From IMG/VR virus record IMGVR_UViG_2648501223_000008: a stretch of 24,087 bases of DNA. One strand, written 5' to 3'. The position numbers and the translations under genes are program-made. Every line of letters begins with the position of its first letter. Positions within the stretch are counted from its first letter, which is position 1. A model generated the notes under the pieces. It had not been told where the DNA came from and searched no databases. It saw nothing but the letters and a program-made list of their open reading frames with translations. Shown here piece by piece: positions 1,342 through 2,090 of the stretch. The stretch comes from a virus. Its lineage: Duplodnaviria; Heunggongvirae; Uroviricota; Caudoviricetes.

Positions 1342-1370
1342 TTGATTTAATTCACAAATAAAACTATAAT
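1342..1370 (+). promoter_or_regulatory. Sigma70-like promoter for the methyltransferase gene
   Basis: ttgatt (1342-1347), 17-bp spacer, tataat (1365-1370); GGTGA Shine-Dalgarno-like sequence 5 nt before the ATG at 1383. Confidence 0.5.
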
Positions 1371-1382
1371 ATGGTGAAATTA

Positions 1383-2039
1383 ATGAAAAAAAACACAGAT
1401 GATGGGGCTAAAATTTACACACCACTTACCCTAAAGCTTTATGACTGGTGGGTTTTGGGAGTATCAAATCGGCTTGCATGGGGATGTCCTACAAAGGAAC
1501 ACCTTCTTCCACACTTTCTGGAACATTTAGGTAACAACCATCTGGATATTGGTGTTGGAACTGGGTTTTACCTTACTCACGTACCTGAGAGTAGTCTGAT
1601 ATCTTTAATGGATTTGAACGAAGCTAGCCTGAACGCGGCATCTACAAGGGCTGGGGAATCAAAAATTAAACATAAAATTAGCCATGATGTTTTTGAACCT
1701 TATCCTGCGGCGTTACATGGTCAATTTGATTCCATTTCCATGTTTTACCTTCTTCACTGCCTGCCTGGAAATATATCTACAAAAAGCTGTGTAATACGCA
1801 ATGCGGCGCAGGCCTTAACTGATGATGGAACTCTATACGGAGCCACAATTCTTGGCGATGGAGTTGTGCACAATAGCTTCGGTCAAAAACTGATGCGCAT
1901 TTACAATCAGAAAGGCATCTTTTCAAACACAAAAGATTCCGAAGAAGGCTTAACACATATACTCTCAGAGCATTTCGAGAATGTTAAAACCAAGGTTCAA
2001 GGTACTGTAGTAATGTTTTCCGCTTCAGGGAAAAAATAG
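1383..2039 (+). CDS. Class I SAM-dependent methyltransferase (substrate unknown)
   Basis: Rossmann motif I LDIGVGTG, acidic residue after beta-2 (MDLNE), motif II FDSISMFYLLHCLP; no DPPY/NPPY or PCQ DNA-methyltransferase motifs; low GC; the track ORF starts at 1371 but the -10 box abuts that ATG, so 1383 is the preferred start. Confidence 0.7.
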   Translation: MKKNTDDGAKIYTPLTLKLYDWWVLGVSNRLAWGCPTKEHLLPHFLEHLGNNHLDIGVGTGFYLTHVPESSLISLMDLNEASLNAASTRAGESKIKHKISHDVFEPYPAALHGQFDSISMFYLLHCLPGNISTKSCVIRNAAQALTDDGTLYGATILGDGVVHNSFGQKLMRIYNQKGIFSNTKDSEEGLTHILSEHFENVKTKVQGTVVMFSASGKK

Positions 2040-2043
2040 CATC

Positions 2044-2090
2044 CAACCGCAGCACGTTCTTGCTTAAGACGTGCTACGGTTTCCTTTACG
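2044..2090 (+). terminator. Rho-independent terminator after the methyltransferase gene
   Basis: stem agcacgt (2051-2057) pairs with acgtgct (2069-2075), followed by the T-rich ggtttcctttacgattt; sequence resembles the hairpin at 998-1041. Confidence 0.5.

Follow-up and report, generated by a model that had tools for sequence, protein, structure and literature searches.

The closest described counterpart of the gene considered here is ybcY (b0562) of Escherichia coli K-12, a pseudogene of the DLP12 prophage. Genomic SELEX (systematic evolution of ligands by exponential enrichment) with RpoD holoenzyme (Shimada et al.; PMC3946193) lists the sequence TTGATT-17-TATAAC in the ybcY-tfaX spacer as a constitutive promoter of ybcY, and marks the same spacer of K-12 as bound by H-NS. 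Beyond this listing, a literature search for ybcY returned only a statement that a mutant had no significant effect on Hha toxicity, for which the paper gives no data, and mentions as a landmark beside ompT. The wider setting is that of lambda-like prophages, in which type III effectors are typically encoded after the tail-fibre genes (PMC3530523). The DNA analysed in this work is the Caudoviricetes virus record IMGVR_UViG_2648501223_000008, a stretch of 24,087 nucleotides (nt) hereafter called the window, in which an open reading frame (ORF) for an S-adenosylmethionine (SAM)-dependent methyltransferase lies beside the type III effector gene ipaH. The feature is best explained, with a probability of roughly 0.8, as an intact ybcY allele carried as a cargo (‘moron’) gene by lambda-like prophages.

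The methyltransferase gene is 98% identical at the nucleotide level to K-12 ybcY, and the flanks align as well, tfaD and tfaX bracketing the K-12 gene in the same arrangement. The K-12 copy has a 2-bp deletion in an A run just after the ATG at 1383, and the window allele is intact. An identical coding sequence (CDS; 100% over its nucleotides) in E. coli CFSAN029787 is RefSeq WP_000239881.1, ‘class I SAM-dependent methyltransferase’, an accession also annotated in two further E. coli strains. A full-length match to PHROG 2132, whose annotation is function unknown, together with the same prophage context as b0562, places the product in the YbcY orthologous group. On these comparisons the gene is an intact allele of ybcY, a prophage gene that is already annotated, widespread and uncharacterised.

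In a survey of 5,426 complete E. coli genomes the CDS was found in 3,799 (~70%; at least 95% identity and at least 80% coverage), with up to four copies per genome. Most often the gene occupies the right-hand end of a prophage of DLP12 or lambda-like type, where nfrA, ybcH, envY, ompT, hydrolase, tfa remnant and methyltransferase are followed on the opposite strand by tfa, stf, lom and J. Lambda-like phages deposited in GenBank, including ev243, 2G7b, PhiR29 and others, encode a 100% identical protein within the order int, ompT, hydrolase, tfa remnant, ybcY, tail fibre, lom and J. The gene travels within a module of ~1 kb, which closes the tail-fibre region and whose transcription opposes that of the late genes. 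The features of this module in the window are as follows.

1068 to 2082, no strand assigned: the ybcY module of ~1 kb (Tfa 3’ remnant, promoter, ybcY and hairpin), shared with prophages and phages that lack ipaH
1045 to 1314, minus strand: Tfa remnant, C-terminal part only (Pfam Caudo_TAP positions 76–130 of 131, E = 4.6e-26), with K-12 tfaX as its counterpart
1342 to 1370, plus strand: sigma-70 promoter-like site TTGATT-17-TATAAT, agreeing with the consensus at 10 of 12 positions
1371 to 2039, plus strand: methyltransferase ORF as annotated, 222 amino acids (aa) from ATG 1371 (RefSeq-style start)
1373 to 1377, plus strand: Shine-Dalgarno-like GGTGA, 5 nt 5’ of ATG 1383, read from the sequence
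1383 to 2039, plus strand: methyltransferase CDS from its probable true start, 218 aa (from the ORF, homologue starts and the PHROG 2132 alignment)
2045 to 2081, no strand assigned: hairpin at the right edge of the module (RNA fold of -20.4 kcal/mol, z = -2.6, one internal mismatch)

Translation probably starts at ATG 1383 and yields a 218-aa product, because residue 5 of the annotated protein is where the alignments with homologues and with PHROG 2132 start. Met5 is invariant, 29 of 31 aligned homologues begin there, and positions 1–218 of the PHROG 2132 profile correspond to residues 5–222 (profile search, E = 7.9e-157). The protein shows the defining properties of the class I superfamily, namely a glycine-rich motif I, an acidic residue that closes strand 2, and a seven-stranded sheet with alternating helices. 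Motif I, LDIGVGTG at residues 58–65, is invariant in an alignment of 32 homologues, as are the acidic, SAM ribose-binding Asp81 and the HD and FDS motifs. Four Pfam families (Methyltransf_12, _23, _25 and _11) exceed their gathering cut-offs with a best E-value of 3.8e-9, and the AlphaFold2 model, with a mean predicted local distance difference test score of 90.3, is a single domain containing seven beta strands. From motifs and model, the product is predicted to be an intact, stand-alone class I SAM-dependent methyltransferase. An earlier note on this DNA had described a stand-alone enzyme of this class, of ~220 aa and lacking DNA-methyltransferase motifs, and the Pfam, motif and AlphaFold2 results agree with that description; the profile search it had proposed returned the Pfam and full-length PHROG matches above. 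Its placement of the gene in a low-GC segment between a Tfa remnant and ipaH is likewise borne out, the CDS having 40.5% GC vs 49.1% for the whole window, with Caudo_TAP and NEL domain matches on either side.

Decay of the gene into a relic without current function in this genome would be compatible with its location in a prophage remnant full of insertion sequences, with the frameshift of the K-12 allele and with the binding of H-NS to the K-12 promoter region. This is improbable, however, given that the frame is intact, the protein is 100% identical to the phage copy and the catalytic motifs are invariant. The ratio of nonsynonymous to synonymous substitution rates, ~0.1 against the orthologues of Citrobacter, Enterobacter and Klebsiella, indicates that purifying selection acts on the ybcY family.

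Fold comparison placed YbcY among small-molecule and lipid methyltransferases without singling out a substrate, and JHAMT ranked first when solved structures were searched by profile (E = 1.3e-5). YbcY may be described as a putative cytoplasmic, stand-alone class I methyltransferase of the small-molecule type, which would use SAM to methylate an oxygen or nitrogen atom of a small metabolite. As a weak guess, that metabolite may be hydrophobic or lipid-like, with a fatty-acid-like carboxylate and a lipid head group as examples; the earlier statement that the substrate cannot be read from the sequence stands, neither the family nor the fold comparisons having given a specific one. A nucleic-acid methyltransferase, whether a DNA enzyme for anti-restriction or an enzyme modifying RNA or tRNA, is very unlikely. 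A (D/N/S)PP(Y/F/W) motif is absent from the 222-aa translation, read directly, and the 218-aa single-domain protein has neither a PC/ENV motif nor a target-recognition domain. No DNA methyltransferase family matched among the Pfam or NCBIfam models, no NCBIfam RNA methyltransferase family matched either, and the top sequence and fold matches are small-molecule enzymes.

A narrower version of the small-molecule explanation would make YbcY a protective or detoxifying conversion enzyme, methylating either a harmful small molecule, for instance an antibiotic, heterocyclic toxin, thiol or metalloid, or a phage-defence signal to the gain in fitness of the lysogen or phage. This version is doubtful. 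Searches with the PADLOC defence models gave a marginal, partial mad2 match alone (E = 0.0033, 14 bits), no conserved partner gene accompanies ybcY, and the structural neighbours that would favour detoxification rank no higher than many biosynthetic enzymes.

Relatives of YbcY extend well beyond E. coli, in a compact family whose conservation spans the whole protein. At E <= 0.001, 1,750 cluster representatives matched, and 527 matched stretches of a one-genome-per-species collection encode a full-length relative; statements on taxonomy and neighbourhood refer to the best 80 of these 527. The 80 loci are proteobacterial, spanning Gammaproteobacteria and some Betaproteobacteria, and belong mostly to Enterobacterales, Pasteurellaceae, Pseudomonas, Xanthomonadales and Oxalobacteraceae. 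Outside E. coli the relative is usually a lone chromosomal gene with no surrounding prophage. Clustering of the neighbouring ORFs of the 80 loci, each from a different species, revealed no universal partner gene; the largest clusters were LysR regulators and short-chain dehydrogenases, which are paralogous, or reflected synteny within Pseudomonas (enoyl-CoA hydratase and CorA). In 14 Pseudomonas species (loci within L057–L099) an enoyl-CoA hydratase gene lies ~250 bp 3’ of the orthologue. Alpha/beta-hydrolases or carboxylesterases, mutually unrelated, occur near the gene in Erwinia (L018), in Enterobacter (L005–L008) and in E. coli phages. A conserved methyltransferase-esterase pair was considered and rejected, the nearby hydrolases being of the TAP-like, Abhydrolase_1 and COesterase types with no pairwise similarity. 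The neighbours give a weak hint of fatty-acid-like or ester-forming chemistry, and not of a conserved operon.

The limits of the module are marked by where homology ends. When the window was compared by blastn with five ipaH-less loci (L002, L003, L009, L010 and L011), homology ran from 1068/1090 to 2079/2082 at 97–98% identity and ended just past the hairpin. A megablast search with 1300–2350 matched 3,838 of the 5,426 genomes, and in most of them homology stopped at query positions 780–783, equivalent to 2079–2082 of the window; nine alone extended into the part leading to ipaH. The Tfa sequence at the left of the module is labelled elsewhere in RefSeq as ‘tail fiber assembly protein, missing N-terminus’, and in L003, L010 and K-12 a second copy of the tfa 3’ end comes straight after the module. 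The repeated tfa 3’ ends, 90–95% identical, lie at 1067–1221 in the window, 8817–8971 in L003, 9468–9622 in L010 and 7922–8076 in L011. Because direct tfa repeats bracket the module in ipaH-less prophages, the arrangement suggests that recombination within tfa genes is how it spreads.

The slot on the right of the hairpin is variable in content. ipaH occupies it in the window and in E. coli with ipaH; in other genomes it contains either two small hypothetical genes or nothing, K-12 being among the empty ones. In the swine isolate E. coli CFSAN018748 (L002, 9182–11065) the slot, corresponding to ~2083–4177 of the window, is occupied by a 627-aa OLD/GajA-like ATPase-nuclease, a partial match to PADLOC GajA at E = 5e-22, and in phage Kati by a DNA invertase with small ORFs, which points to a cargo hot spot adjoining ybcY. 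In Shigella and in ipaH-carrying E. coli resembling enteroinvasive E. coli (EIEC), ipaH with its MxiE box fills the variable slot between the module and the tail-fibre genes. The features to the right of the module in the window are as follows.

2083 to 3998, plus strand: ipaH cargo outside the module, comprising the upstream region with the MxiE box and the ipaH CDS
2220 to 2236: MxiE box (GTATCGTTTTTTTANAG, 0 mismatches), upstream of ipaH and downstream of the methyltransferase gene
2355 to 3998, plus strand: ipaH CDS (NEL domain, E = 6.5e-77; NCBIfam IpaH_Shig, 565 bits with a cut-off of 550)
4178 to 4656, minus strand: DUF4376 tail-fibre-associated gene (Pfam DUF4376, E = 6.8e-17), its 5’ end cut by an insertion sequence

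The placement of the methyltransferase gene beside an effector had been the reason for interest in it, and a function accessory to the type III effector was considered, YbcY being either a secreted substrate or a modifier of IpaH or its targets. In keeping with such a role, ipaH begins 316 bp 3’ of the methyltransferase gene on the same strand, the hairpin between them is no strong terminator, and the ybcY-ipaH pair is found twice in one Shigella-like genome and in nine ipaH-carrying E. coli genomes. These nine are, however, the only E. coli genomes in which ipaH adjoins ybcY, and the 272-bp region upstream of ipaH (2083–2354) is present in just nine of the 5,426; ~70% of E. coli genomes, mostly without ipaH, encode the identical protein, as do free lambda-like phages. 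Presence in genomes that lack ipaH also speaks against a type III secretion substrate, and in Salmonella, Enterobacter, Yersinia, Erwinia and Pseudomonas the orthologue stands alone on the chromosome. The accessory role is largely refuted by this distribution and, of all the alternatives, is the least credible. The earlier note had itself named, as the contrary outcome, a common phage gene unrelated to the ipaH insertion, and a gene found in 3,799 of 5,426 genomes, nine of them with ipaH alongside, answers to that description.

The other loci of this effector family lead to the same view of ybcY as prophage cargo. The DUF4376 gene flanks ipaHe, ipaHd and ipaHb alike, and the ipaHd and ipaHb loci (L012 and L013) share the DUF4376/stf backbone and lack the tfa remnant and ybcY. 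Since these two loci keep the backbone without ybcY, the constant partner of ipaH is, to judge from gene content, the tail-fibre backbone and not the methyltransferase. The ipaHd locus lies next to yecD/aspS, continues into lom and J, and also carries DinI-proximal sequence equivalent to 938–1031 of the window; the ipaHb locus lies next to pgl and continues into baseplate genes. Homology between the window and EIEC-like loci stops at 4656. The adjacency of ybcY and ipaH is, as read from these arrangements, an accident of prophage cargo architecture, a shared location and not a shared function. The window and S. flexneri SFBU1023 (L023) are 99.9–100% identical except for a 1.3-kb insertion in ipaH of the latter, at window ~2959–2967. 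The Shigella-like genome with two copies of the ybcY-ipaH module (L021 and L024) is 4.44 Mb in size and is labelled E. coli ECMA0423.

Regulatory signals also separate the two genes. The exact MxiE box at 2220–2236 is in keeping with the description of ipaH as MxiE-regulated, and no other box was found in the window at up to three mismatches. This sole match lies 3’ of the methyltransferase gene, which was correctly described as having no MxiE box. With no box upstream and no consistent co-occurrence with ipaH, ybcY does not qualify for the MxiE/IpgC regulon and the ipaH cassette. The K-12 position aligned with the promoter-like site at 1342–1370 carries TTGATT-17-TATAAC, the sequence of the SELEX listing. 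The listing supports an autonomous, MxiE-independent promoter for ybcY that is probably silenced by H-NS. Expression in the lysogen would be driven by this promoter and kept low by H-NS. A transcript from 1342–1370 would begin near 1377, and the mRNA would include the Shine-Dalgarno-like GGTGA only with a start 5’ of ~1372. A second, weaker candidate (TTAACC-16-CATAAT, 1315–1342) would yield a leader containing GGTGA.

At the right edge of the module, the stem of the hairpin is the same in K-12, with a G-U pair replacing the mismatch. Its tail, TTTCCTTTACGATTT, is an interrupted T run, and because of this interruption the terminator scan reported no site at 2045–2081. A strong intrinsic terminator was therefore rejected, the hairpin itself being real. 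In ipaH-less prophages ybcY and tfa converge on the hairpin, which may act as a bidirectional terminator. Of the two signals the earlier note had assigned to the methyltransferase gene, the near-consensus sigma-70 promoter holds up, with its 10 of 12 matching positions, and the terminator is retained in part, as a hairpin without an uninterrupted T run. The insulation from ipaH that the note drew from them remains plausible, with the same qualification.

Several observations weigh against the explanation of the feature as a ybcY cargo gene. No substrate, product or phenotype is on record for any member of the family, and no specific family name exists, the database labels being generic and those of ten cluster representatives either generic or an automatic ‘UbiE’. 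The support for the promoter is in vitro binding of RNA polymerase in K-12 as opposed to a mapped start, and the -10 hexamer directly abuts the annotated ATG at 1371. The weak T tract of the hairpin makes read-through into ipaH conceivable. Lastly, the gene is dispensable under laboratory conditions, as the pseudogene of K-12 shows.

The remainder of the window is rich in insertion sequences (ISs). Two inverted IS1 copies, at 1–753 and 5558–6310, are 100% complementary over 753 nt, the left copy being cut by the start of the window. They enclose a 4.8-kb segment holding the tfa remnant, ybcY, ipaH and the truncated DUF4376 gene, and pair and segment together resemble a composite transposon in their layout. 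An IS3-family element at 4657–5557 cuts the 5’ end of the DUF4376 gene at 4656, with a second copy at 11683–12589, and the long ORF at 4698–5732 is a chimera running from the IS3-family element into IS1. The part from 6400 to 24087 is a patchwork of prophage remnants and ISs, including a contractile-tail tape-measure protein and sheath at 6953–11174, IS3 and IS66 fragments, antiterminator Q, DUF968, two integrase genes, and a Peptidase_M90 (mtfA-like) gene at 20891–21727.

The adjacency of ybcY and ipaH has little bearing on Shigella virulence. It follows from the position of both genes in the cargo region that ends a lambda-like prophage. The gene itself is among the most widespread E. coli prophage genes annotated without a function (~70% of complete genomes), and a substrate would fill an annotation gap. 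A fixed module beside a variable slot offers a landmark for cataloguing prophage cargo such as effectors, nucleases and invertases. It is conceivable, as a long shot, that YbcY is a true lysogenic-conversion enzyme methylating a specific lipid-like or toxic metabolite and that the module forms the fixed edge of a hot spot at which effector and defence genes are swapped. Were this the case, host-cell chemistry, stress tolerance or phage-host interaction would be altered in most E. coli and Shigella.

Among characterised enzymes, bacterial PmtA (8ys9), insect JHAMT (7ec0), the phosphoethanolamine N-methyltransferases, DhpI and Coq5/UbiG are 11–21% identical to YbcY. The YbcY family motifs YDWWVL...SN..AW.C.T, in the N-terminal helices, and YN.KGIFSN..D, in the lid, are missing from all of these enzymes. 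The NCBIfam models CpaM and RquA scored ~17 bits, below their cut-offs of 175–180 (RquA, 16.9 vs 175), and UbiG was matched in sequence searches of the PDB over the core only (E = 0.0007–0.001), so that the cut-off for the UbiG/UbiE/Coq5/RquA quinone methyltransferases was not reached. Given the low identity, the absent motifs and scores this far below cut-off, a substrate is not transferable from enzymes of the PmtA/JHAMT type. The likeness to K-12 ybcY is much closer and takes in the promoter, the hairpin and the flanking tfa sequences; the window differs in its -10 hexamer (TATAAT vs TATAAC) and in its right neighbour (ipaH vs a tfa gene). With the exchangeable effector and cargo region of the O157 Sakai Sp prophages and the Gifsy phages (PMC3530523), the locus shares an atypical GC content and genes with their own promoters. 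It differs from that region in that ybcY is itself no effector and stays near-constant in E. coli, next to an effector slot whose content changes.
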